Assembly: GCA_008632985.1 (NCBI GenBank)
Contig: QPGO01000006.1
Location: 62,001-126,000, forward strand
Source of the DNA: Psammoneis japonica
Lineage: Eukaryota
Reading direction: 5' to 3'
DNA length: 64,000 nt
Of this stretch, positions 230-64,000 are shown piece after piece. The position numbers and the translations under genes are program-made. Every line of letters starts with the position of its first letter. Position 1 is the first letter of the stretch. The notes beneath the pieces were generated by a model. The model was given only the letters and a program-made list of their open reading frames with translations, made no database searches and was not told the DNA's origin.

Positions 230-2299
230 ATGATAATGCTAAAGCTATGCACAAAGGAAATACACAACAGACCACAAACACGCCATTGTCAGCCAACGAG
301 CAACGAGGCAGCAACAGGCCGCAGAACGACACTGAGATTTAGTCGTGAATGACGTCATTCTCATTCGTTTGTTGAAAGTTCCAATCGGATTTGCCACTCT
401 TGGGATTCTACTGGGTAGTTTCCCTAACCACTAAACAGCCGCTTACACTTCACGCTTCACTTTGCCACCGACAGCGCACTGTCTCCCGACCTTTGCCACG
501 TCTGAAATTCTCCCTTGCATTTGCCACTGGTGTCAATGTCGCCACAATTTTGCAGGCACCTGCTGCGATGAGATCGTGGATGTGTCAAAAATTGCGCGCA
601 CCACACCACCGTCGTTTGACAGACACAACAATGGCACACCTGCCTGACAGAGCTTGGAAGCTGGAAGTGAAGGAGACAGTGGTTTTTGTCTGTGTTTTCA
701 AGAGGGGATGCACCCAACTGGTTGGACTGTGAAATGTTGAAAAGGTGCATCAGCTGCAACCGTGGCATGAATTGCCAGAGCATGATCTCTGTTTTTTGAT
801 GCTCTTGGGGGCACATCTCACAGAGACATGGCCCTCTCTTGAGGTGGAGGACACAGTGCAACAAATCAGGGTTGGCATCACCACCATGAGTCGGGCAAAC
901 CAAAATGACATGTGCAGCAGGAAGACAGATTTCTGCTGGGTGAGTGAAGGATGGGCACACTCAATGTTTGAATTGAAGAGCAAGTGTGCATCATCATCAG
1001 TGCTCTGCTTCAAAAAATTTAAAACAATGACAATGCATGCCAGATTCATAAAATTTCTGAAGGGGTGATGCAGAAAACTGCTGCATCCAGCACAATGCTG
1101 TTGGGCACATCTGTGCATGATTGCACCTGGCACCACTGTGATCACAATGCACCGCATCAACAAAAAAGCCTCGCTTCTCCAGAAAAAACAGCAAAATGCA
1201 AACCCTTGGCCATGATGCAGCTGGGGTTGAACCAACGAGCAAACCAAACATTCCAAAGCCCCACAAGTGATGAGGTGAGCAACAGTGTTCACAACACTCG
1301 GGCACCTTGCTCTGAACTCACTGGCTTTGTGACAGGCAGTGAAATGAGCAAGCACCACACAGGGAGAGTGCCAGAGATGGGGATGGATCCACCGATGTCA
1401 ATGGCAGTGCAAGAAATGAGCGGGGGTTGGTTGCACAACAAATGGGACTCTGACCTCCTCAGCCATTGATGAAGAAGCAGACAGAACAAGTGACAAACAA
1501 AAGAAAGAATGATGAGTGACAGGGAACATCATGCTTTTCCATGTCAGCACAAGTTTCTCAGCCAACAACAAGGCCATGGCAGGCCGGTGCAGCTGACCCA
1601 GCAGATTTCAATGAACCGGGACCCAAGTGCCAGTGTGCAGGTTGAACCTTCATGGAAAATTCAGGTGTTGTCCACATGATTCCAGCAAGCCCCAGCCAAA
1701 TTGCCCCCACCTGTGATGCACAGGAGTGTGATGAGCACCTGCTTCTTGCTGTGTCTCCCAAAAAATTCCAGACACACAATTGAAATGACCATCCAGAAAA
1801 GGCTGGTGCCATCAAAGTGGGAGGTTGCAGCATTTTGATGCGTGAGAATTTTTTTGACACAAAAATGAGGGACATTTTGACCCAAATGGTTGTGTGAAGA
1901 CATTTGCGCTGTTGCAGATTTGAGTGAGGAGACCAGGACAAGTTTCTCACAGTTGGGTGTCTCTTGTTGTGTCTGTGTGTGGAGAAGTGCATTTGTGTTT
2001 GTCATTTCTCAGTCTTGCAGTTTCTCCTCAAAAAGAATTTTGACATCTGTGGGGCCGCACAGTTCTTTTTCAGGAAAGCTTTTCAGGAAAGCACAAAACT
2101 CAATGAATTCTGTGCCCCTTCAATGCCCTTGTGTTGCAAAACAAAAGAACTGGGATGCAGCCTCTCTGGCAAAAGGTTTTTGCTGATCATGCACAGTCTC
2201 CTCTCTTCAGCTTTGAAACACCCTCTGCAACAACAAATCCAGTTGCCCTTTCCCAAAAGCAGCAACAGGTTGCAGATGAGATGCCGCTTCTTCCATTGC

Positions 2300-3560
2300 T
2301 TCAACTCAGTGAGGCATCATGGGAAAGTCCACATTCTTTTTGCAGACCAGCTCCTTGTTCAGGTGGGCCATGTGCGGTTGTTTTGTTGAGCAATGCCAGC
2401 CCATCTTGAGCTTGGCACGTTGTCAGCAAACCAAGGGACACAGCCCTTGACATTTTCTTGGGCACAAATGCTCTGTTCATCCAGTTGAGGAAGCCAAGCC
2501 TCTGCAACATTAAGACATTTGTCTGCATTGAGCTCACAAAGGTCCAGATGCTTCTCCCATCTTGATTGCTGTGCATGCTCAGCACTGCCAGTGCCGCCAG
2601 TTTGTTGTGGGCAAGCACTGCTTGCTTTGGGGGCAAGACCAAGTTGAGATTGAAGGTGCAGCTGATCAGAGCAAGTTGCAAGAGTTCTTTGCAGAGCTCC
2701 AGCTGTTGCTTTGACCACTTGCTGGAGTCATTGGCTTGGTTGGGGCCCAACAAGCCCAAGCTTTGATGTGATTTGAGACATTTGAGCCAAAGTTGCTGAT
2801 CACCAGCAGCAGTGGTGTGCAGGCAGCAAAACAAGAGAAACCTGTCTGCTTTTTCTTCCATTCAGATGATCTTCAACAGGTCAAGGTTGGCCACAACAGG
2901 ATTCTTGCTCAGCTTCAAAAACTTTGCAGTGGCCAGCAGGCTGTTCAGAGGGGGTGCGCCGCCACCCCCATTGCTCATTTCAAGCGCACATGTCTCCTCG
3001 GCATTCAAGAGCACCTGGGTGTTGGAACTTGGTGCAGCGCTTGCCAGTGGAAGCTGGGTTGACATCATTTGAAACAAATCGGGTTCACCTTTTGACCTTG
3101 AGCAGCAGGTTTTTTTTGAGTGGGTGCCTGGAAAAATGAGATGTGCCAGGTGGTGGGAGACAGCCCACTCAAATGTCAGCAAGCCTTGACTGTCAGCCTG
3201 CTTCAAGTGGAAAGTGCAGTGCAGCAACACAACAGAGATTTGCAGCCACTTTCCAAGAAGGCTCCTCTTGTAGAAAAAGAGCACATTCATGTTGGGTTGC
3301 TGGCACAGGATGAGGAGAATGGGGGCACACTCAGTGCCAGAGTCAAAAAGATGCTTTGGAAAGAGTCAGGCACAGCGGTTTCTCCAAAACAGCCCAGTGT
3401 TTGCCAGGAGAGCCCAGTTTGTTCACATGCAAACACCAAACCAAGGGAAGACCTGACAATGCAATGAACAGGGAAACTGCTCAATTCTTGATGCTGGGGA
3501 GATTCACAAGGCTTCCCCCGCACAGTGATTGAGATGAGTGGAATTCTTGAAATGTAGATC
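2300..3560 (-). pseudogene. Decayed, TA-depleted copy of an acyltransferase-3 gene (limits approximate)
   Basis: 3447-3480 (gaagacctgacaatgcaatgaacagggaaactgc) aligns to 1-34 (gaagacctgacaatataaagaacagggaaaccgc) and reads AVSLFIALSGLPL on the minus strand. Downstream frames are broken. Confidence 0.5.
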
Positions 3561-4043
3561 ACAGCTCCAAACTCAGTCTTTGCAACACTGCAACAGAGAG
3601 AATCACACTGGAACCAAAACAAAGTGTCGCGGGGAGAGCTGTTGTTTCTCAACTTCTCTGAAAAGAGCGCCTGCCCCCCCAATGTCCCCAGTTGGGTGGC
3701 GGGTGGCTTCTTGAATTCATCCTCCTTTTTCTCTGGAACTGCTGGGGGCATTGCAGCAGTGGGCCATGGCGGCACTGTCGAGGTGTCGTTGACTCCATGT
3801 TGTTTCATTTGACTGCAACAGGAATGAAGTGAAAAAAAAAGTGAAGCACAGATGTTCGTTTTAGACGAAAAATGGCAAAAGCACTGTCGTCTGAAATCTT
3901 GGAACAACAACTGAATGCGATGATGGCCAACGCCACACAGATTTCTGCGTGTCTTGTGCCACGGCGCCTCCATTGCAGACAGAATCTCTTCTCGTTCGAG
4001 TGCTCTCACAATTTCTGAATTGCTCGTCAGTTCACAGTCCATC

Positions 4044-5381
4044 ATGAAAATCATGAACTTTGTCCTTGCCATCATTGCTGCCATGAGCGCTGGCGCCATC
4101 ATCAGCCCTCTCTCTGCCTCGTTTGTTGGTGCGACAAAGCGCTGCGTCAGCGCCTTGTCGATCAAGGCTGCCACGGCGACCGACAGCATCGCCACGTTCA
4201 ACCAAGAGCTCCTGCGCAAGTTTTTGGACAACAACAGTTGCTCAGATGTCGATGCTGCCTCCAGCTGCTGCCATGACATCATCAGCAATGCTGCTCCCAG
4301 CACTGTTCCCGAAAACGCCATCATCACTTCCAGCTTTTGCGTTTGTTTTGATGATGGCGACAAGTCTCCGAGTCATGTCCAAGACCTCCTGCGCAACACC
4401 ACGCCCACGATTGCACCAGAAGACGATGCTGACGAGCATTGTGTCTATGACCATTTTGTGCCGGACAACAATGGCGACTCCAACGGCAGCCTCCAGCAAC
4501 TTTTTCTCAACACTGCTCCCGACAGCACGATTCAGACCAAGGGAGTCCCGTTCCAAGATGCGTTCACGATGTTTTTGGAGATCCAGTCGGCCATCTTGAC
4601 GGACACGTGCAGCACTTTTTTGCAATCCAAGTCGGAAGCTTTTCAGCTTTGGTGGAAACTTGCAGACGTATTTTCGAACGACGTCATCGCGCAAATCCAG
4701 GCTCAGGCTCGCGTTCTGCAGGAACGCGACATTTTTTTGCCTTTTTGGAACCCGCTCTTGTCCAACAATCTCTCTGAGATCAAATCGAGTGTTGGACATT
4801 GGGGAAAGAGAGTTGTGGAGATTGCAAAGACTCGGACGAACCTGCCACATGAAGAGGTGTCGCCACTCTGGAACCCAATTTTGTCTGACTGTCGCTCTGC
4901 GATTGAGTGGAAAGCCAAATGTTGGGGGACGAGAGTTTTAGATGCGTTGATTCATGCAATGAACGTTCTTCAAGATTCTGTGCCATTTGTGAAACCCTGC
5001 GAAGAAACCAAGAATGTTGTTGTTGAGGTTCTGGCACCTGCCATTGGAAGTTGGGTCATGACATTGAAACAAACCAGGCTCGCCTTTCGAATCGGTGCTT
5101 TTCAGCACCCGGAAAAATTAGAATGTCAGTTGGGAGGCAATGCAATCGAGACGTCAGTGAGTCTTGATTGGCATCGAGGGGACACATGTTGTTGGTTAGA
5201 TTCAAGCAGAAAGTGTGGTGCAAAATTGCAATTGTCGTTTGCTTGTCTGCAGAAAGTGTGGCACAATGTTGCAATTGTCGATCGCTTTTCTACCGCAGAG
5301 TTTTGCCGCTTCAACCACTGGTCCCAACACCACTTTGTGCAGCCATCGCTCTACCGAGACAGAGTGGAGCTAGGACATTAG
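4044..5381 (+). CDS. Hypothetical protein or partly mutated gene copy with a signal-peptide-like N terminus
   Basis: Long ORF starting MKIMNFVLAIIAAMSAGAII with an internal repeat (PFWNPLLS...WGKRV / PLWNPILS...WGTRV). It has only 2 Tyr and lies in a TA-poor block, so its length may be inflated. Confidence 0.35.
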   Translation: MKIMNFVLAIIAAMSAGAIISPLSASFVGATKRCVSALSIKAATATDSIATFNQELLRKFLDNNSCSDVDAASSCCHDIISNAAPSTVPENAIITSSFCVCFDDGDKSPSHVQDLLRNTTPTIAPEDDADEHCVYDHFVPDNNGDSNGSLQQLFLNTAPDSTIQTKGVPFQDAFTMFLEIQSAILTDTCSTFLQSKSEAFQLWWKLADVFSNDVIAQIQAQARVLQERDIFLPFWNPLLSNNLSEIKSSVGHWGKRVVEIAKTRTNLPHEEVSPLWNPILSDCRSAIEWKAKCWGTRVLDALIHAMNVLQDSVPFVKPCEETKNVVVEVLAPAIGSWVMTLKQTRLAFRIGAFQHPEKLECQLGGNAIETSVSLDWHRGDTCCWLDSSRKCGAKLQLSFACLQKVWHNVAIVDRFSTAEFCRFNHWSQHHFVQPSLYRDRVELGH

Positions 5382-5600
5382 GTGGGAGATGATGCAATCG
5401 AGACGACAGTGAGTCTCAATTGGCGTCAAGGGGATTTATGTTGCCAGTTGGCGTTGAGCAGAAAGCACAGCACAGCGCATTGATCATCATCGTTCTCTTT
5501 TCTGCCATAGAGTTTTCACTTCGACCACCATTCCCAACACCACTTTGTGTGGCTGCAGCTCCAGCCAGTCAGAGGAGAGCCACCAGACCATGGCAGCTAG
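5133..5600. repeat. Diverged tandem duplication, period about 250 bp
   Basis: atgcaatcgagacg-cagtgagtct...gcagaaag...cccaacaccactttgtg occurs near 5140 and again near 5392. Confidence 0.7.
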
Positions 5601-5863
5601 AAGTGGAAGCCACCCTTTAGCGAGTTGCATGTGTGCGCCGCACTCACAATTGCCAGCATGCCATCAAGGGCAAATCATGTGTGTGAAAGGGAAATGGTGC
5701 TCCTGCATTCCCCAGCAAGTGCTTGCACTGCAGTTGGTGAAGGGCCGCTGCAGAACAGCAGCCATGGGAAAATCCGAATCAACAGCAACAATGATTTAAA
5801 CTGTGGTGTTGTTTTTCACACACATCAAATTACAGTGCCGCTCAACGCAATTCACCGCGTGTG

Positions 5864-6908
5864 TCAATTCCAGTGGCCAGTCTGCACAGAACGTGCTTCC
5901 GAAAATTCATCCACATAGATTTCTTCTCTTGGTTTGGGATGATGATGCTGACTCAAACAACCGGCAAAGCATTTGGGATTGATTTCAAATCGTGGCTCGC
6001 CAAATTGGCCCTCCCACAATCGTCGGTTGTTGCATCTGCAGATTTGAACCTCGACATCGCGATTGTTGACACACTCCAAACAAAAGTTGGTTCTGACAAT
6101 TTTGACTTGAACGGTGCTGCAAGATTGAGGTAAAGAGAGAAACTCTGTTGAAGCAATCCCGCACTCGTCCACAACAATGAGTGCGCCAACACGACGACAG
6201 GGATCACAGTCCATGCACCAAGGAATTTTGGCATGACAATCTTGCCAACCATGACATTGCTTTCAACAGAGCTTTGGGAAAAAAGAATCGTTGGCACCGA
6301 AGCTTTTGATCAAAGCCAAAGGATCGCAGTCGGAATCGTCACAACAACAATCAAAGCTTGGCGCTCCATGTGCAGCCTCGGCAACCAGGAATTTCATTGC
6401 AGATGCCGCTGCACTGACAACATTTCAAAGAGCCCTTGCACTCCAGGTTTGTGTTGCAATCACCTTGACAACGACAAAGCGGGGCAAGAGGGGGGTTTGC
6501 CACGTGTTGCAACACAACCTTGCAGTCCTGGGCATCACAACAAAAGACAGCCAGAACCAACAATTCCTTGTCCATGCAACCTGGAATGCAAGCAGCACTC
6601 CCTCCATCACGCTGAAAGGAAACAAGATCTCCACAGCAATCGTTGTTGCAGCTGCAAGTGCAAATGTGCATCAAATCATGGGACCATGACAACAGCAGTG
6701 AGTGAGGAAAGCACAAACAAAAGCCACGGCATTGAAAAAAGACAAAGACTTGCTCTCCCTCGCAATGATCCAATGGAGAACTGGGATCATTGCCTGACCA
6801 ACGCAATGGCATGATGGGATTGTCATTTCCAACATCACCCTCGGGATCATGGCAATGACCAGCATTCTCAGAATCGCACCCCACAACAGTGTCAACCCTC
6901 ACGAGCAT
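5864..6908 (-). pseudogene. Decayed secreted protein with frustulin-like Cys-rich (ACR) repeats followed by a ricin-B-like domain
   Basis: Fragments DCCGDLVSFQRDG...IPGC, LCRCQGDCNTNLECKGSLKC...EIPGC, KLC*KQCHGWQ...WCMDCD and CLSQHHHPK...EEIY resemble diatom frustulin-type proteins (from recall). Stops and frameshifts are present. Confidence 0.65.
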
Positions 6909-7437
6909 GGCACTGCAATTGTGGTCGCCATCACGGCTGTTCGAGTCGGGAAAAGAAAAACAAGTGCTCCATCACAAAGGAGTGCAACTCAACAAAACGT
7001 GGGGTGGGGCACCATTGCCACGAGCCAAATCAGAAACAAACAAACAATGAGTTTCGCGTGCGACCTCAATGGAAATTGTGTCAAATCCACAAATGAAATT
7101 AACGCTCATGACCAAGTCGTGAATGACGTCATCCTTGTTTGTTTGACGGTGGAAAGGGGCAGCTGATCATCGCGGTGAACAGGCAGGGAAGCAGTTGTTG
7201 TTGTTGTTCATGTTGGATGTTGGTGTTGAGAGTTGAGATGAGGCCAGCGAATTGTGGGATGGCACTTTTTCTTTTGCACGCCACAAGTGCAAACTCATGC
7301 AGGGTTCTACGTGCGTCATTCTGTGCGCCGGTGGCATGTTGCAAGATCTGAAAAGACACCAAAGATGCAACTTGAACTTGGACATTTTATTTTGTGTGCG
7401 CATCCCAATTTTTCACACATGCACACGTCACAGGACT

Positions 7438-7712
7438 GTCACTGGAAAACGTGGGAACGTCGCTGGAAAACGTGGGAACGTCACTGGAAAACGTGGGAAC
7501 GTCACTGGAAAATGTGAGAACGTCACTGGAAAACGTGTGGACATCATGACATCCATTCGTGTCCAGCTCTCGGTGCAAACATTGCGTGCATTCTACACAT
7601 GTAGAGTGCATTCCAGAAATCATGTGCAAACTTCAACCATGGGACGTCACTGGAAAATGTGGGAACGTCACTGGAAAACGTGTGGACGTGCATCACTGGA
7701 AAACGTGCAGAC
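7438..7712. repeat. 21-bp minisatellite (gtcactggaaaacgtgggaac), five units plus three more units
   Basis: Directly visible at 7438-7542 and about 7646-7712, with no spacers. Confidence 0.9.
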
Positions 7713-7823
7713 GTCATGCATTCTGCACGTGCGCTGCATGCGCACAGACAGCACCGGTGGCCCACTGCACCAGAAATCATGCACAAATTTCAAAACATCA
7801 CCCATGCGTGCATCACCAGCACG

Positions 7824-8062
7824 CCTCCTTGCACCCAAGTTCAGATGGAGATGAGCCGTGCGATGCAAGACCTCTCATCGGAAAATGTCCTGAGACTTGT
7901 GCCTCTTCCAGAAGTGGGTGCTTCTGGCCCAAGATGGCTGGTCACGGAGACCGGTCAAACCTGTCGGCGTTTTGTCACTCTCACTTTTCCATCTTTGTTG
8001 AGACAGGAACCCTGATCAACGTGACTGGATCATTCCAAAGCATTGGAAAAGCGATTTTTTGC
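7824..8062 (+). repeat. Split direct repeat A1
   Basis: cctccttgcacccaag...aagcgattttttgc, near-identical to 16017-16255. Confidence 0.9.
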
Positions 8063-8082
8063 TCCCTCTCCCTCTCCCAACC

Positions 8083-10559
8083 ATGTCCGACTGCTTCTCC
8101 TCTGGCATTGATGATGGTGCCTTCGTCAACGTGGCTCGCACTCTCGAGTCCGATGTCATTTCTCCATTTTCGGCACAGTCTCCCGCGTTGCCTGCTTCTC
8201 GGGCCCCACCCTCTGCGGTGGGTCATCAGGGGGGTGTTGAAGGCGCAAGCCCCTCTCTTGGGGGCTTAAATCTTGAAGGAATGACTGGTGACATGGGACA
8301 TTCAGACATCGAGCGTGCGGAGCTGGGGGAAGTCATTTCCCCTGACCCGGATTCTGCATTCGATGCCTTGCTCTCGAGAACAGAAAGCGCTCCCCGCGTT
8401 GATTTTTTCGCGGCGAAGGATGGGGGAGCGGGTCGAGGTGCATCTGGCTCGATGGAGGAAGGTGCGTCTCCTTCGTCTGATGCACCTCGTTTTCATGTCG
8501 CCTGGATTGAAGGTGCCGATAACTCCCGTTGCCTTGGGGTTGCCGGGGGTGGAGCCATGTTCTGTTTCAAGAAAGCTGAGGATTGCAAGGTGAAACACAA
8601 GGGCTCGAAGAAGGTCATTCCTTCGGACGGCATGGTGTTGATTCTCAAGACACCAGACACGGCTTTTTGCCAGCCTGCTTTGGATGGCTCGTTTGTCTCG
8701 GCAGACGTTCTGGTTAGCTGGGAAGCGAGTGCCAATGCTTTGGCAGGGTGGCGTCAGAAGTTTCTGGCTCTCGGGAACAGCGACACTTGCTGTCCTACGG
8801 AGGAAGAACATTGGGAGTCTTTGAAGGAGTACAAAGTCGCCGCGGCTTGCAAGACGCCGGCAAAGGGCAAGGATCCCCACAGCAAGGAATTTCCTGGGCC
8901 ACTTTTCAGACACTTCACACCCCACCAGCGGGTTGTTTCCACCACCCCAGCGCAATTTCTGGCCGCGAACAAAAGTCCCGCGGCCCTGGCTGGAGTTGTT
9001 CAGTCCCTGGAAAGAAACTTGACAGAGACCGGCAACACGGTGGTGGAGATGGGCAACAAGGCATGCGTGCACTTCAAGGAATTGAACTCCTCAGTCAATG
9101 TCCTTGGCCGCAAGCTGGAGCAGCTGGGTGCAACTCTCGGTTCTCCTCCACCTGAATTCAATCAGCGAGTGGAAGCCCCTGCGATTTGGGGAACACTTGC
9201 CAATCTGTCAACAGTCGGCTCACCCGAGCGCCCTCCCAGAGACTTGTCCGTGGATTTGGCACAGATGGAGTCGAACATTCATGCCGGTTCCAACAGACTG
9301 GCGTCAAATGTGAACACTGCCATCCAGAACTTGCAAAACAAAATTTCTGGGTTGGCAGCCAAGCACGACATGGACTCTCTGAGGACAGGCATGCTCAAAG
9401 TTTGCAACCAGTTGATTGGCAGAGTTCAGAATCTTGAAAATGCGGGAGCCTCGCTTGGAGGCGCGATTAGATCTGGAAGCGGATTGGGGTTTACAGGGGT
9501 CGGAAGCTTGAGCACCATGGACCGACAGACACGGGATCTGAGCCAAGCGGTGAACGAGTTGAAGTCCAAGTCAGACACTTCGGCTGTCAAGTTCTCTGGG
9601 GTCGGTGTCTCGTCTTTTGGAGAATGTCAAGCCTGGATGGTACAACATTTTTCCTCCAGGGTGCATGGCTGCCTCACAGATGCAAATTTGTCATTGGATC
9701 GAATCACGGGCACGGAACCAGTGGCTTCGCACCATTTTTTGGCTGGTCTGGCTAAGCGCATGGACTTAAAGATCAGCACGGAAGAGGATGCAAGGACTCT
9801 GGCGAGTTTTCAGCACAGCATGCCGAGGATTTTGGATTCGGGCTCGGCAAAAGGAGCGCAGTCGGCGGGCCTCCACCCGTCGTTCTTGGACAAGACAGCC
9901 TCCCATGATCACTGGTCCACTGGCTCAACGGGGACCAAGCATTTTATCATGGATAAAATTGGGACGGTCGAGCGAAATGTTTTGAGCAACATTGCTCAGC
10001 GAATCCCGGGGGGGGGGGGCCGTTTGAAGGCCAGGTGGTTCGAGATGCCCTGTCGAAGTCAGTGGCATTTATTCGGGGTTTGATTCAGTTTATGGATGAA
10101 ACTTGCGAGAACCTGGTGCAACTGAGCAAGTTCTCTCAAAAGCAGGCGTGGTCCTTGACTTCGAAATTGGTGCACAGAATCTTTGATGATCTCAATCAGG
10201 TTCGCTCCGGCATCTTCACATCAATCAAGGGAGCCGATCCGGATGTGGTGTGCAGCCAGATTCTTTGGGCAATTTTTCGGTCTCACGACGTCATGGCCGA
10301 GCACACAGCTCACAACTTCAGGGACCACCCCTCCATGGCATCGGAGCATGTGAAATTTCTGGCTACGAACTCCGGCTTTGAAGCTGTCACTGCTTTGCAA
10401 GCTGCAGTGACGACGCTGGCGGAAAAGGCGAAAAACGCTGGAACCGAAGCTAAGTCGGCGCAGGCTAGAGCTGACACGGCGCACCAGGGGGTGAACAAAC
10501 TGAAAACGGAACTCAAAGAGGTCAACAGGCGTCTGAAAGCGACAGAATCCAAGAAATGA
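8083..10559 (+). pseudogene. ORF1 (gag-like) of the YR retrotransposon, frameshifted at a G12 run
   Basis: Track ORFs 8059-10083 and 10035-10559 join across G12 at 10008-10019. There is a Cys/His knuckle (C...FC...C..KH), coiled-coil-like segments and a C-terminal FRDHPSMASEHVKFL block. Confidence 0.7.
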
Positions 10560-10562
10560 AAC

Positions 10563-14363: not shown

Positions 14364-15235
14364 CCAACAAAACGACGACGGGGCCCAGTCAGGTGAGGAT
14401 GCGGCGTGAATTGAAGACAACATTTGGTTTCGAAAGCCCCAGGACAGGAACAAGTTCACCCAAGCTCGTGCTGGGGACCATCTGATGGTGGCTTTCGAGT
14501 GCAACTCTTGCATTTTTCACAAGTTGCATTGCAGAGACCCTATCCCGACCTCTCCACATGATGAGGTGGCACTGGCTTGCATCAGGCGGATCAATTTGGA
14601 TGCATTCTGGAGTGGAGAAAGTTCTGCGGTGGAGAACAACGCGTCCAAGGTGGCTCGGGGATTGGCCCCATTGGATCGTCCAGGTCTTCATGGCCCTCAT
14701 CTGGAACCAGGCCCCTTGCCTCCGCACGATCACTGCGGATGTGAGGTGGCAATGCAAACAGTCTTGGCATTGACATCCCCCGGTCGCTGTTCAGGCTCGC
14801 ACTCCCAGCTTGACACCGTCAGGAAGCTTCGAACAGCTTGCTCAAACCAGGTCAGGGCATCAGCCTCCGCCAACTCCCGGGCCCTTGCATTGGCGGATCT
14901 TGAAGGCAAGCAATGCCTTCGGACATGCGAGGACCCGTGTGCTTCCTTGTGGTTTCAAAGGTTCATGACTGGATGCAAGAGACGAGTGGGCCAGGATTGG
15001 AGGCCGGACAGGGCAATTTCTGTTCAAATCATGCAACATCTGCTGCCAAGGCTTGAAGACAAGTTTCTTTGAGCCACAAACGCCGGGGATCGGTTCAGGT
15101 TTCTAACCAGGGGCTTCTGTTTTGCAGCGAGCTTTGCCTTGTCCCTTCGTGGGCCAGAGGGATTGCTTGTCGATTTGGGGGCGTTGCGGGAACACCTCCC
15201 TCTCCACAACTCACATGTCATGATCCCACCCGGCT
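14280..15235 (+). pseudogene. ORF3: tyrosine recombinase, disrupted and C-terminally truncated
   Basis: ARAGDHLMVAFEC..C, IRRINLDAFWS, then after TGA at 15070 ALSLRGPEGLLVDL (candidate catalytic Arg). No HxxR/Tyr region was recognisable downstream. Confidence 0.65.
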
Positions 15236-44600: not shown

Positions 44601-44656
44601 CTCGTTTGGCGTCGAAGGCTCAATTAAAACAGTGACAGATGATGTCATCAACTTAA

Positions 44657-48890: not shown

Positions 48891-48929
48891 TGAGCACCTC
48901 AATTGTGTCACAAAAAAGTCATCAGCTGA

Positions 48930-50135: not shown

Positions 50136-50219
50136 TCTGGGATCTGGTGCAGATGCCTCCTCCTCTTCCTCACTCAAGAACACTGTTTGCATCCAAAGGA
50201 CCAACATCTTGAAGGGTTG

Positions 50220-54959: not shown

Positions 54960-55900
54960 GATCCAGGAAAGCACTGTTTGATTTGCTTCAGCAAGTTCAT
55001 TGCATTATTGTTATTGCTGTTGCAGCTATTGAATCTAATTCTTTATGGTGTGCCTTTCATTTATGCAGAGCAAAGGAGAGAGCACGCGACGGTCAAGAGG
55101 CTTCTTTTTCGCGTGGCGTAGCGAACCTCGCTGTCAATAACGTTCCTACTAATAGGAATACGGGAACCCAAGAAATGGAAGAAGGGGTAAGCATAGTTTG
55201 GTGTTGTTATTGCTATTCCAGCTATTGAATCTAATCATTTCGTTTTTGCGTGCTTTTCAATTATGCAGATGGAGGAGCGAGCGACAATAGCCAAGAGGCT
55301 TCTTTGTCACTTGGCATAGTGTACCCCGACGCCAACAACATTACTACTAGTAGGAATACTTGAACCCAAGAAGTGGTAGAGCCCTTCATGGCAGGGGCAG
55401 TGAATGGATGTCGGGGTGAAGTGGACGAAGAGAACAATGTTGACGAAAGGAAGGGCGAAAAAGACGAGATGGCTACAACTCAACATATCAACTAAAAGAA
55501 GACAACAAGGTGAGCAACATCACGTATGTACTGGCTTGGTTTTTCTTGGTATGTATATCCTTTTCCAAGTATCCTCAATAGTTCTGCCTTTTGCGTTTCA
55601 GCGGAGCCGAGAGGAGACGACGCAATAGACCGCAAACGGGAACATTCGGTAAGTCGTTTTAAGAATAGTTCTCTTTTCCTTTTCTGGCGACTCACACCAA
55701 TTGTTCTTCCCTCTTACATACACTGCCACAGAGCATCCGATGAGGTACAAAAGAACAATGTATGCGACCACCATTCTTGCAGCCAGAGCCATAATGAATC
55801 CTTTACGAACAAGTCTCAGGATGATGGCGCGTACTACAAGACGGAGACGCACCTCTAATAGGCCTAGTAGGGCAAGAAAACCGAGGAGACTTGACGATTA
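54960..55900 (+). pseudogene. Spliced gene relic with a duplicated intron-exon unit
   Basis: GTAAG...CTAAT...TGCAG intron at about 55188-55268. cagctattgaatctaat...ttatgcag...caagaggcttcttt...taggaatac...aacccaagaa occurs twice. Further gtatgt/gtaagt...cag pairs and in-frame stops are present. Confidence 0.4.
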
Positions 55901-57479
55901 AAAGTTTGTTTTCTGCATTGAGAATCGCGAACTGCGTGGTGGAGTGCTAGTTTGTTTTTAATTGTATCTTTTAATTGATTCTCTATTGATATCATAGTTG
56001 TCAGTACCGTAGCATTTAAATGCGCTGCACCATAGTTGAGAACAATGCTCTACCAGAAACATAGTCCAGGAATAGAGAGCACCGATTCCTGGTGTTCCAG
56101 AAATGGGCCGTCCCCAGAAGATTGGAGGAACCTTCAAACCCAGAAATGTATGACAGTAATTTGGCGTCCAGGAATGAAAACCAGTAATCTCCGAGAAGGA
56201 CGACCCAGCAATTGACCCAGGAAAAGGTGAAAATTCCAGTAATGTGTCCAGCAAAACCCTGTTTCTCCAGTAATTCCTCCAGAAAACGCGCCATGCCGCA
56301 TCCAAAGTCACGCGCAACGAAGTGCGCGCAGAAAATCCAGAAACAGGAGGAAATTTACTGGAACTTTCGCGTGCAGTGATCCCATGCACCAAATCCAAAA
56401 TAGGCTTACAACATAGGCATGCAACGCATACTCACTTTTTGAATATCGCCTTCATTTTCGACCGATCTCGGTAAACTCAGGGTCGTTTCCGACTAAGTTT
56501 GTTACGTCGGATTCAGCGATGGCACTGAAATGGGCAAAGGTGCTGTCCTTGCGGGTCAAATAACCCGTTTTATAGGCGTGTTTGGGTTACACGACATGGT
56601 CAAAATGCCGAAAAATTGCATTTTCGTCGTCAGCCATCCTCGGTAAGGGCCGACACAAGACCGGAATGCCGAGCTGTAATCGAGGGAGGGGAAGGACATG
56701 CGTGGTTGCATGAAAATGAGAGGTGGTGGTGGTTTTTTTGCCATGTTAGAATTTGGGGAATTGCCAAAATCTACGTTATCACGGCCTTCTTTCCGATTCC
56801 AAGCCTTTTGTGGAGGTCAATAGCAACGCAGAGACTCTTGTTGTTATTGCGGAACAGTTGGTAGCTCGCAAGTGGTTAGAATCTGTCCGAAAGAAACTGT
56901 CCGTATCTCGCAAGAGAGACGTGGAATTGATGCTGATGAATCTTCTCACGAATGATGGGTGGCTATGACGCTCCGACAATGCTCCCCCGTCACCTGAGCA
57001 CCAAGATGCAAATCTGTATGCTAGTTTTGTTCTCGACGTCTCTGAACCTTGGTTTTCCTTTCTTACCGGATCTGCGAGTCTTGTTGCGGGCTCGAGAAGA
57101 AGACTTGTTCAGAAGACACAAGAGAATGATAAGCTTTTGTATGCAATCAAGATGAAGTTGAATCTTACCAAGAAGAGACAACAACCTGGGGACACAAATT
57201 CAGACATGACGAAACAGGAACATTTTGACGACTCATCCATGACGAACGAGGAATGCTCGAAGCTGCGTCGTCGTCTTCAAAACGAAAATGGAACTGTTTT
57301 ATCCAGCTCGACCGATGTGTTTCAGTTCCTGAATGATGCTCGCGGTGTGCTAGATGACTCGACCTTTGACCTTTGACCAGCTTGTTTTGTTGTCCTCGTG
57401 GATCGCCTCCCTCATTGACTTTGACGATTTGCACGATTGTCTACTTGCTTTCAACATTGACCTGTCTCATTGTGTTGTT

Positions 57480-57850
57480 TCTTATGTGTCTGTGACACAG
57501 GCCTTCATTTATCCAATGTCAAGGCTCATCAAAGTAATGGTGGAAGAAAAGGAAACGCGAACGACAGAGACTTTCTTTATCTTGGGCGTTCGCGCCTGGG
57601 TGCACTGGTTGTCTTGGATCATTTCTTCACTTGGTGTTTTCCTCATCATTGCAGTCTTGGTGTCGTATACGCTGAACAAAGGCGTCCTCAAGTATCCATT
57701 GGCGTTCAACTTATTCTGGTTTATTGGACTCTTTTCTCCCGCAACTGTGGGATTTTCCTTTTTCATTGCAGACTTTCTCGCATGTCAAGCTAGCCGCGGT
57801 GATTGGTCCCGTGGCGCGTTTGGCAACCCTCTTGCAGCCAATTTCAGATT
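57480..57850 (+). pseudogene. ABCA-family transporter gene fragment
   Basis: YPMSRLIKVMVEEKETR..E...ILGV..WVHWLSW is the ABCA transmembrane-domain signature. It is frameshifted and has no nucleotide-binding domain. Confidence 0.7.
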
Positions 57851-59046
57851 TCTCGTTCGGCCTCGCTCATCACCATGCACCAAATAGGCTTAAATGTAAC
57901 GGACGCTTGGTTTTATTGGACTCTCAAGACCGAGGGCGGCGCCTTTGCGGAGTGGGATTTTTTGCGTGGACTCCACGAGGGATGGATGACGGTTCCAACG
58001 TCTTCTGCCCAGCAAGAGTTTGGGAACTGTGATGAAATAATGTTGGATACCACGGACAATTATAGCATTTTGCACGAGCATCCCAATGCTTCCTTGCTGT
58101 ATCCCAGCAATTGGCAAGGCGCGGATATTGATGTCGATGATGATGTTGTCATGTCACACGGAGAGTCCTTGTTGACAAAGAACCATACTAATACCAGTTT
58201 TGCTCGTCCTGGAGACGAGCATGATGATTCGGATGATGATGTTCCAGTCAATCATTTCGACAATGACACGACCCCTGTCACCACCAGTCAAACGCCACCA
58301 CACCATCATCATTGGTGCTCGAGGTTTGTTCCTGCACCTTAAACAATCCCACCAAGGAAATGCTCTACCAACCAACCTCGCACGCGATCAAGCACAAGGC
58401 ATAGTCTTGGATTGATACAGTGTCTTTGGTGCACGCGCAAGCAAGCAAGGTAACTGCAAGCTCGTCGCATGCTTGTTGCCTCGAATGTGGTGAAGGATGC
58501 TCACATCTCTATCCCTCAAATCCGATTTACGCAAATGCCTCCTTTGCTCACGCAGCAGTGCAGGTCGAGATTCCTTTTGCCGACAAGATCCATCCCTCAA
58601 CCCGGGGCTAACAGCATTCCATCAACAGCATAACAACTTTTCTCATCGCTAGAGCCAGAGGTCTACCGTCGTTTCATTGGTCGTATGAGTACACAAGCAG
58701 CCGTTCAGCTCTCGTGTCCATCTATTTGTGCTGTTGTCGTTGTCTCGTAAATGTTGATTTGATCTCAACGCGCTGTCGTCCTTTCGGAATCTGGGCCGCA
58801 CCGAGGCCGAACCCGAGGCGGAGGGCTCCGCCCGACCCCGAGGGTGATGCCGAGGTAAAGGGTAAAGGCCCAGATTCCGACAGGACGCTGGGTGCTTTCT
58901 ATGGACAACAACACGAAACAACTACAACCAACTTTGAGTATTCTTACTCATGTGTAAGTCTTTTGTATCACTGCCCATGTTCTCTCTGTAAGGCGACCCT
59001 TTTTTACGTTGATTTGCGTGCACATACTACGAGAAGACATGCCACG

Positions 59047-59676
59047 ATGACGATACAGCCGAAACGAAATCCGACACGTCCTCCGGTATGGAGGATACGG
59101 ATTGGTTTGGATGCGAAAGGTCCGAGTTTGGCAAAAGTCCGATGCCAACTCGTTCTCTGGCATGTATCGAACGAGCTGTTTGGAAGAGGTTCGCAGGAGT
59201 CCAACACTCTGGTCAGAAGACAAAGACCCGGTGTCATCACACGCCAATTTCCCGGATGCAAACGATTCTGCCACAACTCAAAGAGAAGACAGTTACCGCT
59301 TAGCAGATCTACAAGCAGCTCGATGAAGAAGCTATGTTCAAAACGAGAAAAGCTTTGGACGGTTCCGTTGTTGCGTATTAATAGTCCCGACAACAATGTC
59401 ATAGAGAAAAGCTTCTTGTCTGCACAAAATATCGCTTGTCCTTTTTTCGCGCCAAAACCGCCCCAACAAGCACCGGGGTCAATATTTGTGGTTGATAATG
59501 GGTTCTACAGAGTACGACAGCTCTACTACGACGGTGACGCGCCGGAGCGATGCTGTGCTTGTCCGACCTTACAGTACGATACCACCTCGTACTCTACTCT
59601 AGTCGTCGATGTCATGAGCGAGACCTGCACCGATCCAAATCATGAACCGCGCAATATTGCACAAGCTGTAGAATGA
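59047..59676 (+). CDS. Hypothetical protein (start uncertain)
   Basis: Part of a 320-codon ORF in normal-composition DNA. The C-terminal half looks globular. No family recognised. Confidence 0.4.
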   Translation: MTIQPKRNPTRPPVWRIRIGLDAKGPSLAKVRCQLVLWHVSNELFGRGSQESNTLVRRQRPGVITRQFPGCKRFCHNSKRRQLPLSRSTSSSMKKLCSKREKLWTVPLLRINSPDNNVIEKSFLSAQNIACPFFAPKPPQQAPGSIFVVDNGFYRVRQLYYDGDAPERCCACPTLQYDTTSYSTLVVDVMSETCTDPNHEPRNIAQAVE

Positions 59677-59939
59677 ATCGCAATATACCCATGGTAGGTG
59701 GTCTTGTTATTGGCTCCGTCTTGCAATGAACAAACAACAACAAACGTTACTCTACATGGTAGCTCGGCACTATATACCCACGGTAGAAACCCAGTTCTTC
59801 TTTTTTATGGAATTGTATCTTTTGATCCTCTTGGATTCTACAACTAGAGTTTTAGACAGTAAACATTAAATGTGTATCGATTCTCTGTTATATTCTTTTA
59901 ACTACCTTCCTATAGTGTCGTCGAAACCCTTGCATTGTT

Positions 59940-61718
59940 TTATTTTTTGTTTCGTTGCGATTGTTTGGCACGTCGTCGTTCTCTTAAAAAATTGGATAAA
60001 TTATCACGATCCTCCATGATTTCACCCTCTTGTGTAGAGGGTCGTTTGGGTTGTGGTGGTGTTTTGTTGTTATGGCTTGTTCCATTCTTCTTGGCCGATT
60101 GCACTCGTGGTGCTGCTTTGGTTTTGGTTGGCAATGGATCCCTTGCGGATGGTTTCACAACCACTTCATCCCACGGAATATCATTGGTACTAGTACTCGC
60201 ATTGGATGACGATACAACCTTGAAGGTTTCTTTTGGCATACTACTGCGTGCTCTTGACGACGATGAAACTGGATTGATGTTTTGTTGTTGTTGTTGTTGC
60301 TGCTGCATTGGGACGACATTGTCATCGTGTAAATCATAATGTTCCGCCACGTGATCAAACGAAAACGACATGTCTTCTTCTTCTTCTGACGATGATATTT
60401 CTTCTTGTTGTCGTTGTTGTTGTCTCGCAAGAGCCGCCATGCGATACGATTGTTGTCGATAAGGTGACTGTTGCATACCACCAATCGATGACATGGAAGT
60501 GGATGTCATTTCACTAGCCGCCATGCTGGGTGTCATTTCACTTGCCAAACTGTACGCATCGACATCAAAGGATTCATCACCATCCCTCTGTTGCACCGAT
60601 GCTGCCATTGTGGACGCAGCCGCCATGTTGGCAACACTATCGTCCATGGCATAACTGTTGTTGCCATTGTTGTCTTGTTTGGATATGTTTGTTGCGCCGT
60701 CTTTTTGTTTTGCATCACTCGCTTTATTGCTACTATTCCGCGTCGTCGCCTTGGGTCTCTTTAACACTTTCCACCAAACTGCCAATAATACCAAGACAAG
60801 TGCCACGGCTGCCACACAAACACCGACAATGATTCCCGTATTGTTATTATTACTGCCACTGTTCTTGTTGGAAGCTTCTTCTTGTTCTTTGGCATATTTC
60901 ACTTCAACGACTTGTACAGTATTCAAGGCTTGTTGCAAACTCGTCGAATCGCCCAAGGCTTGTCGTTGTACCACGCGTACAAATTCCGTTTCAACAGGAC
61001 TGCCTTGAAACAACACTTGGCCTTTATAATTCAAAGTATTAGTAGCTTCCAATAACAATCGATTGGATGATTGCAATTCCAAATCGATGCGGAGTGTTCG
61101 TGGTAAACTTCGAACAAAGGATTCCATCAAGTACTGCGAGAGGGAATCGGTAATTTCTGCAGAATTAATGTTGCCCGACGACAATTCCAACGAAAACGGA
61201 TCGAGCGGAGAGGAATAAATTTTTGGAACAGCCGTGGGAGCCATGGTAGTGGGATTAGTGGTGATGGCAACTGGTTGTGCTGTAGTAGTGGGTACTTCCG
61301 GCGTGGTGGTAATAAAGGTTGGTTCACTCGTTGTCGAAAGAATGGGAACTGCAGTTGGTGCACGTGTCGCGTCTGGAATTGTCGGTGCCAGTGTCGGGCG
61401 CAAGGTTGGAGCAACCGTTGTGGCAGCAACCGTAGGTGATGGGGTAGGTGCAAACGTGGGCGCTTTAGTCGGCATTTTCGTGGTGGGAGACGGAGTGTCT
61501 TCTTCTTCCTCCTCCTCTTCTTCTTCCTCCTCTTCTTCTGGATCATCCTGCTTCAATCGACGTCGTCGCTGCTCAACAACAGGAAAAGAAGCAGCAGCAT
61601 CACGACGAGCTTCACCACGTACACCAGAAGATGATTCAACACAACATGTTGTCATGACAAGAAGGAAAAGTAATAGCAAACATGATACAAGTCCTTGTCG
61701 AGTTCTTGTTGTTGTCAT
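59940..61718 (-). CDS. Type I single-pass membrane protein with Pro/Thr-rich ectodomain
   Basis: 592-aa ORF with signal peptide, RRRRLK, poly-Glu, T-x-A-P-T repeats, a globular segment, TM (GIIVGVCVAAVALVLVLLAVWW) and a low-complexity tail. Confidence 0.88.
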   Translation of the reverse strand: MTTTRTRQGLVSCLLLLFLLVMTTCCVESSSGVRGEARRDAAASFPVVEQRRRRLKQDDPEEEEEEEEEEEEEDTPSPTTKMPTKAPTFAPTPSPTVAATTVAPTLRPTLAPTIPDATRAPTAVPILSTTSEPTFITTTPEVPTTTAQPVAITTNPTTMAPTAVPKIYSSPLDPFSLELSSGNINSAEITDSLSQYLMESFVRSLPRTLRIDLELQSSNRLLLEATNTLNYKGQVLFQGSPVETEFVRVVQRQALGDSTSLQQALNTVQVVEVKYAKEQEEASNKNSGSNNNNTGIIVGVCVAAVALVLVLLAVWWKVLKRPKATTRNSSNKASDAKQKDGATNISKQDNNGNNSYAMDDSVANMAAASTMAASVQQRDGDESFDVDAYSLASEMTPSMAASEMTSTSMSSIGGMQQSPYRQQSYRMAALARQQQRQQEEISSSEEEEDMSFSFDHVAEHYDLHDDNVVPMQQQQQQQQNINPVSSSSRARSSMPKETFKVVSSSNASTSTNDIPWDEVVVKPSARDPLPTKTKAAPRVQSAKKNGTSHNNKTPPQPKRPSTQEGEIMEDRDNLSNFLRERRRAKQSQRNKK

Positions 61719-62049
61719 GGCGGCAACAACAATATACCTCTAGAGAGTATGATGCATGCAACAAACAGTAACCTTAGCAACAACACAGTTTCCTCTCCGA
61801 TCTACCGTTGGTTTGCAGCACAGCAAGCGCACCCCGCGAAAAATGACACGCGTGGGAATCGTACGAATTCAACGCATGCTTTTTATATACACGAAGACGA
61901 ACATATTTCCGTTGAGAATCGTTTTTTGAATGACGTAACAAGATGCCATATCTTTCATTCTATTTCTACAGACACGAATGCGTCATTGGTTGGAAGAACC
62001 AAAAAGATGCCACGTCGCAATGCTCATTTTTCCCTCACAAAATTCAACG

Positions 62050-64000
62050 CAAATTGAATCATGGCACCGCAAGTCCTTGCAACAACATGAGAGTGGTCCC
62101 TTTGACGAGGTGGAAATCAGCAATGAAACAACGCTGGAGTCAGGAACTTTCAAGGAAGATGTTTTTGCAAACAAGTCTGTTGCAGCGCACCCCACCAGCA
62201 TCTGACGAAAACAACAAAACACCCTTTTGGCGACGCCGCACGTTTGCCACCGGCAGACTCAACCGGTCCCACCGGCTGACTGATGGGTGCTCACTGGAAT
62301 CAGCATGCAGCCCTGTGCACAAGCCACCGTGATAGATGAGTTTGAGAGTGCCGCCACAAAACAATGACAACGCAAAGCGACTTCTTCCCGAAGGACATGC
62401 GACACAGTCCTGCCCTTGAAGAAAGCTAGAATGTCAGAAGCTGCACAATCACATCTCTAAAGAACAACAAAATGCCACAAGTTGGTGTCACAAATGTGTG
62501 TGATCATGTGGTTTTGTTGGTCTGTCCATCGAACGATTTTTGATTTTGCAGGCTTGCATGGTTGAACTTCAACTTGCACAGATGCCCTGCAGAAATGTGC
62601 ACAAAAACACACCAAAATCAAAATTTCAAAATCGTGAGGTGGAGAAGTGAAACCACTCTTTCTTCCCTGCACCATCTCGTGGCGACTCCAGCAGATTGTG
62701 ACAACAATGACGATGATTGAAAATGTCGCTTGCATGTGTTGAATGTGCTGAGGAGCAAGAAAGAGTGCATCGTCACTCTCTGACTCCTTGTGGCCACAAA
62801 ATTTGTCTTCACTGCATGGTTTGTTTGCCAGCAGAAAAGACATCCAAAAAAATAAAACCAAATCTGCTGCATTTACGGTGCTGTCACTCCTTTGCCAGCC
62901 AAGCCGGCGCATTGTGGTCAATGCGTCTCGCACCATCCAAAAGAGAAATCATGAATCAGAAAAAAGTGAAGTCGATTGTGAATGCCCAGCTCCTGTCAAG
63001 AAAAAGAAAAAGAGGAACCCCACCAAGTCATGAATGTTGGAATGCCTCCGAGAGAAACAAAACGACGGTTTTTGGCACCAGCTGTGATTGCAGCGGATGG
63101 CCTGCCACTCACAGAGCAAGAGGTGGTTGAAACAGATGAGGATGGCAACATCCCACACACTCCAGTTGGACATGCAGCAGTCAACAGAAAAGGAGACACA
63201 GCTGCCGATGACAACCAAACCAAAATTGCTGTCGCAAACATCTTCAAGAACATGTCATCCGTGCTCTCACCTGTGGTTACAACAGGAAAGAGTGCAGAGC
63301 CAATGAGCCCAAAAAATGCACTCAATCACCTCATGTCAGAAGAAAACAGCACAGCCATGCTTCCATCTATTTTTGCTTTTGACGCCAATGGCACTGACAT
63401 GAATGCTTTCATGGAGACAATGAAGAAGCATGGGAGACAAGGCGACTCATCGGCATTGGCTGTGGGGATGATGACGGCTTTAATTGTGAGAGTTTCAAGT
63501 CAAAATGAGGTGGGGGCTGCCATCAAACGTGTGTCCAATGTTTTCACAACTCAAAAGAGATTCTGTCGTTGGAGATGCTCTTGCCAATTTCAAAGCAACA
63601 ACATCTGCATTGGCCACTGGCATTGCAAAGGCTTCTGAGTGCACTGCAGCCTGCCTTGAACCCAAGGCAAAATTGTTGGCACCTGAGGATGGGGCAATGC
63701 TGACAGCCGACAATGCAGAATTGAAAACAACACATGCTAAAGATGCAGGAGGGTTTGGCAGAATTCAAGGAAGATGCTGTGTTTTGAGTGCTCTGGGGGG
63801 GAAGACCTCAGTTGAGGAGCATTCAGCTGAGCCAGATTGGTCATTCCATTTGACCAATGTCAACAATGTTGTGCTCACTGGTCATGGAAAAGAAGCACAA
63901 CAGCCACATGCTGCGAAATCAGCTCATGTCTCGATTTTTGACATTGACAAAATTTGCACTGCTCACTGGAACAACAGAACAGCCAATTGACAGATGCAGC
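62050..64000 (+). mobile_element. TA-depleted degenerate block with a RING-finger-like coding relic
   Basis: CVEC...PCGHKICLHC at about 62735-62815, followed by broken frames. TA is rare. Confidence 0.4.

Follow-up and report, generated by a model that had tools for sequence, protein, structure and literature searches.

TpA-directed A:T to G:C transitions in sharply bounded blocks of a diatom contig

The 64,000 bp of DNA analysed here, referred to as the window, are positions 62,001 to 126,000 of contig QPGO01000006.1 of the diatom Psammoneis japonica (assembly GCA_008632985.1). Discrete, sharply bounded stretches of the window underwent near-saturating A:T to G:C transitions at TpA (TA), and the adjoining gene islands did not. 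Among the affected DNA are satellite arrays, the decayed copy of a gene and a Ngaro-type retroelement present in many copies, besides further DNA without recognisable origin.

TA depletion and the direction of the change

Over the whole window the observed/expected ratio (o/e) of TA was 0.25, and in many 1-kb windows it fell to 0.00–0.08, with TG and CA at 1.5–2.08. Two-state segmentation on TA occurrence delimited eight depleted segments (445-16536, 19371-23007, 25618-30008, 30374-32271, 37121-44508, 45116-50662, 51021-54666 and 61968-64000), which sum to 44,632 bp or ~70% of the window and contain 193 TA. The o/e values of these segments were 0.07 for TA, 0.49 for CG, 1.58 for TG and 1.64 for CA, whereas the remaining 19,368 bp contain 857 TA and had values of 0.61, 0.99, 1.20 and 1.18, respectively. 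A first-pass annotation of the window had described TA-poor, TG/CA-rich blocks beside gene islands with ordinary TA; this contrast was borne out, and the block coordinates given there agree with the segmentation to ~20–90 bp. The longest TA-free runs measured up to 1,550 bp, and the chance of one run of this length at the TA rate of the gene islands is ~1.6e-30. Among 128 windows of 500 bp, 86 had a TA o/e below 0.25, and the o/e of TA was negatively correlated with that of TG/CA (Spearman -0.81) and positively with that of CG (+0.75). The deficit of TA plus CG amounted to 0.0612 per position and the excess of TG plus CA to 0.0537, indicating that the missing dinucleotides were mostly regained as TG and CA. 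AA (o/e 1.25) and TT (1.28) were undepleted in the blocks. The block edges are sharp, the density dropping from 1–3 TA per 20 bp to zero within 20–40 bp at 19371, 23007, 25835, 32271 and 54666.

The direction of the change was determined with an outgroup and with a paralog. For the former, the polyprotein ORF (open reading frame) of the retroelement, ORF2, was aligned with 30 homologs, and a column was taken as conserved Tyr if at least 60% of the homologs carried Tyr. In the 11 columns found, the window has Cys four times (TGT/TGC), His five times (CAC/CAT), Phe once (TTT) and Tyr once (TAC), so that nine of the 11 are now TGY or CAY codons. The whole of ORF2 contains only 3 Tyr in 1266 residues (0.24%) vs 1.35–3.79% in all 120 listed of its 150 homologs. 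Other conserved columns were largely kept (Trp 30/34, Gly 44/52, Pro 40/47). Of 47 columns with conserved Arg, 27 still have it and 13 now have Cys, Trp, Gln or His, the signature of CpG decay. Each of the element's 78 relatives from metagenomic DNA had ordinary TA (o/e 0.40–0.78, TG/CA ~1.0–1.3) and, therefore, the element family is not natively poor in TA. For the second comparison, an intact ORF in a gene island served as polarity reference for its degraded paralog in a depleted block (Table 1). The intact copy contains 37 TA, the decayed copy one. The 32 aligned TA of the intact copy correspond to TG in 10 cases, to CA in 15 and to something else in seven, and none was kept. Since conserved Tyr codons were replaced and a gene copy was degraded, selection for TA avoidance would not account for the loss. 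The directional A:T to G:C change at TA on both strands that the first-pass annotation had proposed is thus supported by both comparisons, and it runs, as also proposed there, opposite to the repeat-induced point mutation (RIP) of fungi.

In-place action, sequence context and relation to CpG decay

The two B repeats of the retroelement, B1 (15572-16018) and B2 (16274-16721), are distinguished by 30 differences: 12 exchange TA with TG or CA, as had been claimed for duplicates in the window, 10 exchange CG with TG or CA, 6 lie in TG/CA doublets and 2 are of other kinds, giving 28 differences of TA or CG type vs 2 others. The right edge of depleted block 1 falls ~185 bp inside B2, and these outer ~185 bp, which adjoin a gene island, retain TA that B1 has lost. 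At 9692/9693, 21822/21823 and 21855/21856, where the window reads CA, other genomic copies have TG. Together, the differences between B1 and B2, the spared end of B2 and the copy-specific choice of TG or CA indicate that mutation occurred in place on DNA and independently in each copy, after insertion or duplication. Both strands were mutated, since Tyr to Cys (4) and Tyr to His (5) replacements are about equally frequent. In the paralog pair the 10 TG and 15 CA events form 14 runs, counted by hand from the event string, vs 13 expected, and no strand-coordinated clusters were seen in this string.

Within the paralog pair, A was changed to G in 10 of 32 cases after T, in 6 of 59 after A, in 10 of 63 after C and in 2 of 46 after G. 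Correspondingly, T was changed to C in 16 of 31 cases before A, in 2 of 55 before C, in 9 of 84 before G and in 12 of 94 before T. The polarised spectrum, which the first-pass annotation had named as a check, thus has an excess of changes at TA over other contexts, and the target is TA and not AA or WA in general.

The bases around TA appear to matter as well. Surviving TA lie in YTAR in 98 of 193 cases in the blocks vs 137 of 850 in the islands, and in RTAY in 8 of 193 vs 254 of 850; ATAT occurs 0 times vs 65 and TTAG 32 times vs 25. In polarised events in which the two strands offer differing contexts, the mutated A lay on the Y-T-A-Y strand 16 times and on the other strand twice (n=18, p 0.0013), and of 24 events in the paralog pair, 23 had C or T next to the mutated A on its 3' side. 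These counts suggest that TA is lost faster where the adenine precedes a pyrimidine (5'-T-A-Y). A +1 pyrimidine rule alone fits both the survivors and the polarised events, since a rule for position -2 would lose YTAR first. The loss of AT (-0.0205) and the gain of GC (+0.0199) fit TAT to TGT and TAC to TGC changes, with the original composition as a confounding factor.

Decay of CpG to TpG or CpA, as expected from 5-methylcytosine, is found in the same blocks: the CG o/e falls to 0.10, 10 of the 30 differences between B1 and B2 are of this type and the Arg codons of ORF2 carry its mark. CpG decay cannot remove TA, and its extent varies independently of that of TA loss, with TA and CG o/e values of 0.12 and 0.74 at 37121-44508, 0.08 and 0.62 at 445-16536, 0.10 and 0.43 at 45116-50662, and 0.03 and 0.10 at 51021-54666. 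In the 86 windows with TA below 0.25, the CG o/e had a median of 0.57 and spanned 0.00–1.07. Between B1 and B2, 12 events over 16 TA sites were counted vs 10 events over 27 CpG sites, so the loss of TA is more advanced than that of CpG. Because CpG decay is slower and variable in the same blocks, TA loss is no by-product of it, which agrees with the separation of the two that had been claimed earlier. A T-context shared with the CpG changes was looked for and not seen, T preceding the mutated C in 12 of 25 cases vs 70 of 180 in the background.

Choice of target, known systems and candidate mechanisms

The first-pass annotation had called the process repeat-targeted, and this part was not supported. 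Copy number was judged from the depth of contigs of sequencing run X1 at 80% likeness, at which unique DNA has a depth of ~60–65 as in the gene islands. Positions 19371-21139 and 22474-23007 have this single-copy depth and yet are TA-free. For these, older copies that were lost or diverged beyond the 80% threshold are possible; by arithmetic, saturating TA and CpG processes would separate two copies by only ~10%, so sister copies should remain visible at 80% likeness. A short repeat of very high copy number lies between them at 21140-22473 (core ~21750-21990, summed depth 1416–1812, up to 52 contigs per site), within a TA-free block that is single-copy elsewhere. Conversely, two copies of an insert resembling a miniature inverted-repeat transposable element (MITE) were found unmutated although they lie inside TA-free DNA (Table 1). 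They share perfect 12-bp terminal inverted repeats and ~100 bp conserved at each end, and their interiors are unrelated. Hence, the process is not constant, or it is blind to these copies, or the copies are recent; for the blocks that hold them it may be either intermittent or ended. The saturated single-copy blocks together with the untouched two-copy MITE weaken repeat targeting, and silent or foreign DNA that is marked by other means would fit better.

The process also differs from RIP, which changes C:G to T:A, mostly at CpA, and thereby creates TpA (RIPCAL). Both produce dense, transition-only mutation of mobile or duplicated DNA which inactivates elements and leaves neighbouring genes intact. 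In the window, however, TpA is destroyed and TG and CA are created, as the o/e values of the depleted segments show, and RIP needs duplication, whereas here blocks that are single-copy at the 80% level are saturated and the two-copy MITE is untouched.

Among known systems the nearest is that of the chlorarachniophyte Bigelowiella natans, for which a 2026 preprint describes hypermutation of TpA to TpG or CpA in integrated viral DNA (Mettrop et al., bioRxiv 10.64898/2026.01.13.699255). According to its main text, mutation-accumulation lines acquired 231 new mutations in two viral regions integrated in the genome, of which 230 were A to G or T to C, these all on TpA; only one copy exists of one of these regions; de novo mutation was at ~1000-fold the background rate, ~6e-7 per site per generation; and TpA-poor, CpA+TpG-rich clusters in the genome are enriched in reverse transcriptase and DDE domains (10.64898/2026.01.13.699255). 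An ADAT2 homologue is proposed there as the enzyme. In both organisms A:T is changed to G:C on either strand and only at TpA, and clusters occur in which TpA is depleted and CpA+TpG enriched. The change in the window is, likewise, almost only A to G or T to C and on TpA (25 of 32 aligned TA, 9 of 11 Tyr codons, 6 of 59 AA), and depletion is clustered and coupled to CpA+TpG (Spearman -0.81, 86 of 128 windows, eight segments). Foreign or mobile DNA is affected in B. natans, the remaining genome being normal, and may be the target here too, where the gene islands are ordinary and one depleted block holds a mobile element. In both cases single-copy DNA is affected as well, and action seems intermittent, being seen there in some lines only and suggested here by the unmutated MITE copies. 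The two differ in lineage (Rhizaria there, Stramenopila here) and in degree, with a TA o/e of 0.01–0.12 over 70% of the window vs 0.45 in the giant-virus region of B. natans. CpG decay alongside, the +1 pyrimidine bias and edges sharp to ~20–40 bp distinguish the diatom case; the words trinucleotide, flanking, downstream and diatom are absent from the main text of the preprint, and its supplements may hold context data. Further, mutations were watched arising in B. natans, whereas the evidence here is comparative. The statement of the first-pass annotation that it knew of no description in diatoms therefore stands as far as our literature searches reach, in which no report of TpA hypermutation in diatoms was found; as a wider claim of novelty it would not, because the same signature is reported in B. 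natans.

The reading we favour, with a probability of roughly 0.6, is adenine deamination of DNA that would be directed by chromatin or foreignness and would operate beside CpG decay. A TadA/ADAT-like adenine deaminase would be the most economical mechanism. Such an enzyme, resembling TadA/ADAT2, would convert A in DNA to hypoxanthine at T-A-Y, and replication would fix hypoxanthine as G. A chromatin mark or a guide, and not copy number, would steer it to DNA that is silenced or foreign, which would explain the saturated single-copy blocks as well as the sharp edges. All Tyr codons and many Ile, Leu and Val codons of mobile elements would be destroyed and the elements killed; because no TAA or TAG stop is created, the dead ORFs would stay open. 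In the tRNA on which TadA/ADAT2 enzymes naturally act, the target A34 has U33 on its 5' side. A review (PMC13109818) gives 'YAC' as the context in which a TadA-8e A48E editor works; this context, in which an engineered TadA variant edits adenines of DNA, resembles T-A-Y, and the inosine formed from A is read as G. The ADAT2 homologue proposed for B. natans was put forward on comparable grounds. Natural activity of an ADAT on DNA adenines is reported, as cited in the main text of 10.64898/2026.01.13.699255, only for amphioxus ADAT2.

Several points weigh against this reading. In a Pfam scan of stop-to-stop ORFs of at least 120 aa (140 scanned overall), no ORF in a depleted block reached the gathering score, and a mobile element was demonstrated in only one depleted block; both bear on the nature of the targets. 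The MITE-like copies escaped. Support for the T-A-Y rule comes from 18 informative events and from the counts of surviving TA, to which C to T changes at CAG/CTG, making TAG/CTA, could contribute. TG/CA doublets were considered as proof of ancestral TA and rejected, since ancestral CG yields the same doublets. Finally, run X1, the only public run that covers the stretch, may itself have been the source of the assembly, so it does not count as an independent platform; no RNA run containing the stretch was listed.

Because A to G on one strand equals T to C on the other, all of the counts would also fit an attack on thymine, for example by an oxygenase of the TET/JBP type that turns the T of TpA in silent DNA into 5-hydroxymethyl- or 5-formyluracil. 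Oxidised thymine mispairs with G, giving T to C, and the T-A-Y rule would then read R-T-A for the modified T. We know of no TpA-specific thymine oxidase and regard this possibility as unlikely; the B. natans preprint, too, proposes adenine deamination instead. Still less probable, in our view, is biased correction by a TDG/MBD4-like glycosylase which excises T from T:G replication mispairs in silent methylated DNA and so fixes T:A as C:G with a bias for TpA. Glycosylases of this kind do have neighbour preferences, and the sharing of blocks by TA and CpG losses (Spearman +0.75, 128 windows) suggests methylated DNA. However, DNA of near-normal CpG content is already poor in TA (37121-44508), changes per site between B1 and B2 are more frequent at TA than at CpG, and the rate reported for B. 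natans seems high for uncorrected replication errors. Error-prone repair synthesis in methylated DNA by a polymerase-eta-like enzyme had been listed by the first-pass annotation as a candidate, and A to G at TA does belong to its WA signature. The candidate is disfavoured by context and very improbable: in the paralog pair A to G after A (6/59) is like that after C (10/63) and not like that after T (10/32), 16 of 31 T were changed to C before A, and AA and TT are undepleted in the blocks.

Equally, there is only a very slight chance that the elements were edited before integration, by ADAR-like A-to-I editing of element RNA or by cDNA deamination, and that mutated copies were then inserted. 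Editing of sense RNA would leave A to G on the coding strand alone, whereas the two strands are hit equally. Differences at TA sites separate B1 from B2, whose outer end was spared, and the decayed gene copy and the satellite arrays are TA-free too. Contexts with TAG are among those most spared, opposite to the 3' G preference of ADARs, and neither A to G restricted to the transcribed strand nor a favoured 3' G was found. ADAR hyperediting of double-stranded RNA from repeats does produce clusters of A to G in these, yet it acts on RNA, and here the changes are fixed in DNA, on both strands, and extend to DNA other than the retroelement. The 5' U favoured by ADARs (main text of 10.64898/2026.01.13.699255), block edges that are sharp like insertion ends and the fact that the clearest mutated unit is a retroelement speak for editing before integration. 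Least probable of all is that no mutation process took place and that the pattern is an artefact of assembly or base calling caused by modified bases, or foreign DNA that natively lacks or avoids TA. That a single run holds the stretch, maybe the source of the assembly itself, would allow for such an artefact. Contigs built independently from raw reads by another assembler (Logan) agree with the window nearly base for base: one of 5,126 bp matches 16692-21817 with 0 differences and one of 5,193 bp matches 21879-27069 with 4, and their word depth is ~60, equal to that of genes. Agreement at unique depth argues against an artefact of assembly or polishing. The confirmation in raw reads from two platforms for which the first-pass annotation had called was obtained in part, the bases being borne out by the rebuilt contigs of one run. 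The codon replacements are independent of sequencing problems, and conserved Tyr codons that are now TGY or CAY, the degraded gene copy and the ordinary TA of 78 of 78 element relatives stand against a native composition.

P. japonica would be the second lineage with TpA-directed A:T to G:C hypermutation and the first stramenopile, with a depletion far more advanced than in B. natans. This suggests a process that occurs widely in algae and is no peculiarity of a single species. The window would offer saturated natural substrates on which the rules of the process can be defined, namely the T-A-Y preference, the sharp domain edges and the independence of copy number, and it points to a natural enzyme that would edit adenine in DNA, which is relevant to base editing. 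It is conceivable, although we hold it for rather doubtful, that diatoms and chlorarachniophytes share a programmed genome defence in which a nuclear DNA adenine deaminase, with a T-A-Y specificity like that for a tRNA anticodon loop, is guided to silent or foreign DNA irrespective of copy number. If so, the shared system would end no more than a few tens of bases from active genes and would remove TA at a higher rate than that of methylated CpG decay; it would be an ancient counterpart of RIP and APOBEC, common to stramenopiles, alveolates and Rhizaria (SAR), that writes G:C instead of A:T, and a natural adenine editor of double-strand context.

The retroelement, the depleted blocks and the gene islands

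The features of the window are compiled in Table 1.

Table 1 Features of the window (coordinates within the 64,000 bp; TA, CG, TG and CA values are o/e)
Feature	Position	Strand	Description
TA-depleted block 1	445-16536		16,092 bp; TA n=73, 0.08; CG 0.62; TG 1.41; CA 1.55; by segmentation
TA-depleted block 2	19371-23007		3,637 bp; TA n=3, 0.01; CG 0.26; by segmentation
TA-depleted block 3	25618-32271		segments 25618-30008 and 30374-32271; TA 0.02 and 0.04; CG 0.26-0.31
TA-depleted block 4	37121-54666		three segments, split by 44509-45115 and MITE-like insert copy b
TA-depleted block 5	61968-64000		TA n=9, 0.06; continues past the end of the window
Ngaro-type retroelement, hypermutated	7824-16721	+	from self-BLAST and repeat alignments
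Element ORF1	8002-10080	+	693 aa stop to stop; Tyr 0.14%; no Pfam match
Element ORF2	10563-14363	+	1266-aa polyprotein, reverse transcriptase/RNase H-like (predicted); mutated but still open
Mutated paralog copy	38669-39564	-	71.6% identity; frame split over three minus-strand ORFs; in depleted block
Intact paralog ORF	59940-61718	-	592 aa; in gene island; 60211-61148 aligns; polarity reference
MITE-like insert copy a	29994-30389	+	~396 bp; flanking 4-bp duplication AAGT; TA 0.90; CG 1.42
MITE-like insert copy b	50648-51036	-	~389 bp; inverted relative to copy a; duplication CCAA; TA 0.93; CG 1.64
Tandem arrays	48151-48831, 49227-50012, 51087-51946		units of ~182-192 bp; inside block 4; all TA-poor
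Gene island 1	16537-19370		TA 0.54; CG 0.98; tail-to-tail ORFs 16929-18050 (+) and 18241-19176 (-)
Gene island 2	23008-25617		TA 0.61; CG 1.05; FkbM-type methyltransferase ORF 23235-24152 (+), GT8 glycosyltransferase ORF 24526-25758 (-)
Gene island 3	32272-37120		TA 0.66; fasciclin-domain ORF 32676-34175 (+)
Gene island 4	54667-61967		TA 0.58; CG 0.99; ABC-2 transporter fragment 57354-57884 (+)
Gene island 4, further ORFs	58714-59676 (+), 59940-61718 (-)

The repeats of the retroelement follow the order A1 (7824-8078), ORFs, B1, A2 (16017-16272) and B2. An A-pol-B-A-B order defines Ngaro elements (PMC3783388), and it was found at 7824-16721 and, among nine relatives examined, clearly in one (L065) and probably in another (L027). 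The contig depth of 157–737 vs ~60 for unique DNA shows that the element is multi-copy. ORF2 has 150 database homologs, the best with an E value of 5e-268, 40% identity and 98% coverage. The structural model of one relative (P0029, predicted local distance difference test (pLDDT) score 81.7) matched the reverse transcriptases of foamy virus, cauliflower mosaic virus (CaMV) and Ty3 with E values of 1.9e-13 to 4e-13 and a probability of 1.00; Pfam RVT_1 was matched weakly, by 6 of 24 relatives (best E 0.0021). By its modelled fold, the polyprotein is thus predicted to be a reverse transcriptase with RNase H. For the tyrosine recombinase that Ngaro-type elements carry in place of a DDE integrase, sequence searches of Pfam and PDB, with queries including P0001 and the profile A1, gave no match, and no relatives of the element were found in the viral contig collection. 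The family is large and unrecognised by Pfam: 509 metagenome matches were confirmed, mostly on contigs of 6–10 kb, and the members carry a polyprotein of ~1250 aa whose reverse transcriptase/RNase H nature seems visible by fold alone. Named relatives come from Cylindrotheca fusiformis, and since several of them derive from a Cylindrotheca transcriptome, the family seems to be active in diatoms.

The unbroken TA-free run of block 3 begins at 25835, and copy a of the MITE-like insert splits this block. In block 4, positions 44509-45115 (607 bp) have an intermediate TA o/e of 0.44 and a normal CG o/e of 1.09 and are not a MITE copy. The three satellite-like arrays of block 4 comprise 3.5–4.8 copies with 64–88% matches and have a CG o/e of 0.02–0.13 in 1-kb windows; among adjacent double differences that distinguish their units, TG/CA doublets occur most often.

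One block holds the reverse transcriptase element, the other blocks are without recognisable domains in the scan of 140 ORFs and the gene islands are ordinary. Pfam scans of 14 and of 140 ORFs gave no domain of transposons or viruses in the depleted blocks. The ORF at 3954-5381 had no homolog among 5,356 word-sharing candidates scored, and the ORF at 37474-38544 gave four weak matches (best E 7.8e-06), which were uninformative. Tyr makes up 0.14–0.56% of four long ORFs in depleted blocks vs 0.8–3.9% of six ORFs in islands. Long overlapping open frames crowd the depleted blocks on both strands (e.g. 3954-5381 and 37474-38547), and 28 ORFs of at least 200 aa, many of them without a homolog, were counted in the window. 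The lack of recognisable content is to be expected from the composition, since TA-free DNA has neither Tyr codons nor TAA and TAG and decayed genes persist in it as unfamiliar long frames. For annotation, this means that TA-free DNA gives long false ORFs and masks transposons from homology searches, and gene callers would report orphan proteins from such blocks, rich in Cys and His and without Tyr.

Scans of the window for tRNA genes and with Rfam gave no match. The ORFs of the gene islands are open without interruption over 300–590 codons, and gene island 3 includes ~3 kb without long ORFs in which TA is still normal. Membership of the GT8 protein in its family was confirmed by comparison with a protein atlas; its best named relatives are from diatoms (Epithemia clementina, 42% identity, and Thalassiosira sp., 36%), and the best identity among the matches listed was 51% for the GT8 ORF and 40% for the element ORF. 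Genes sit as tail-to-tail pairs in small islands (16929-19176, 23235-25758 and 32676-34175). Hypermutated DNA starts ~77–405 bp upstream of their start codons (19371 with ATG 19176, 23007 with 23235, 25835 with 25758 and 32271 with 32676), showing that the blocks occupy the head-to-head intergenic spaces.

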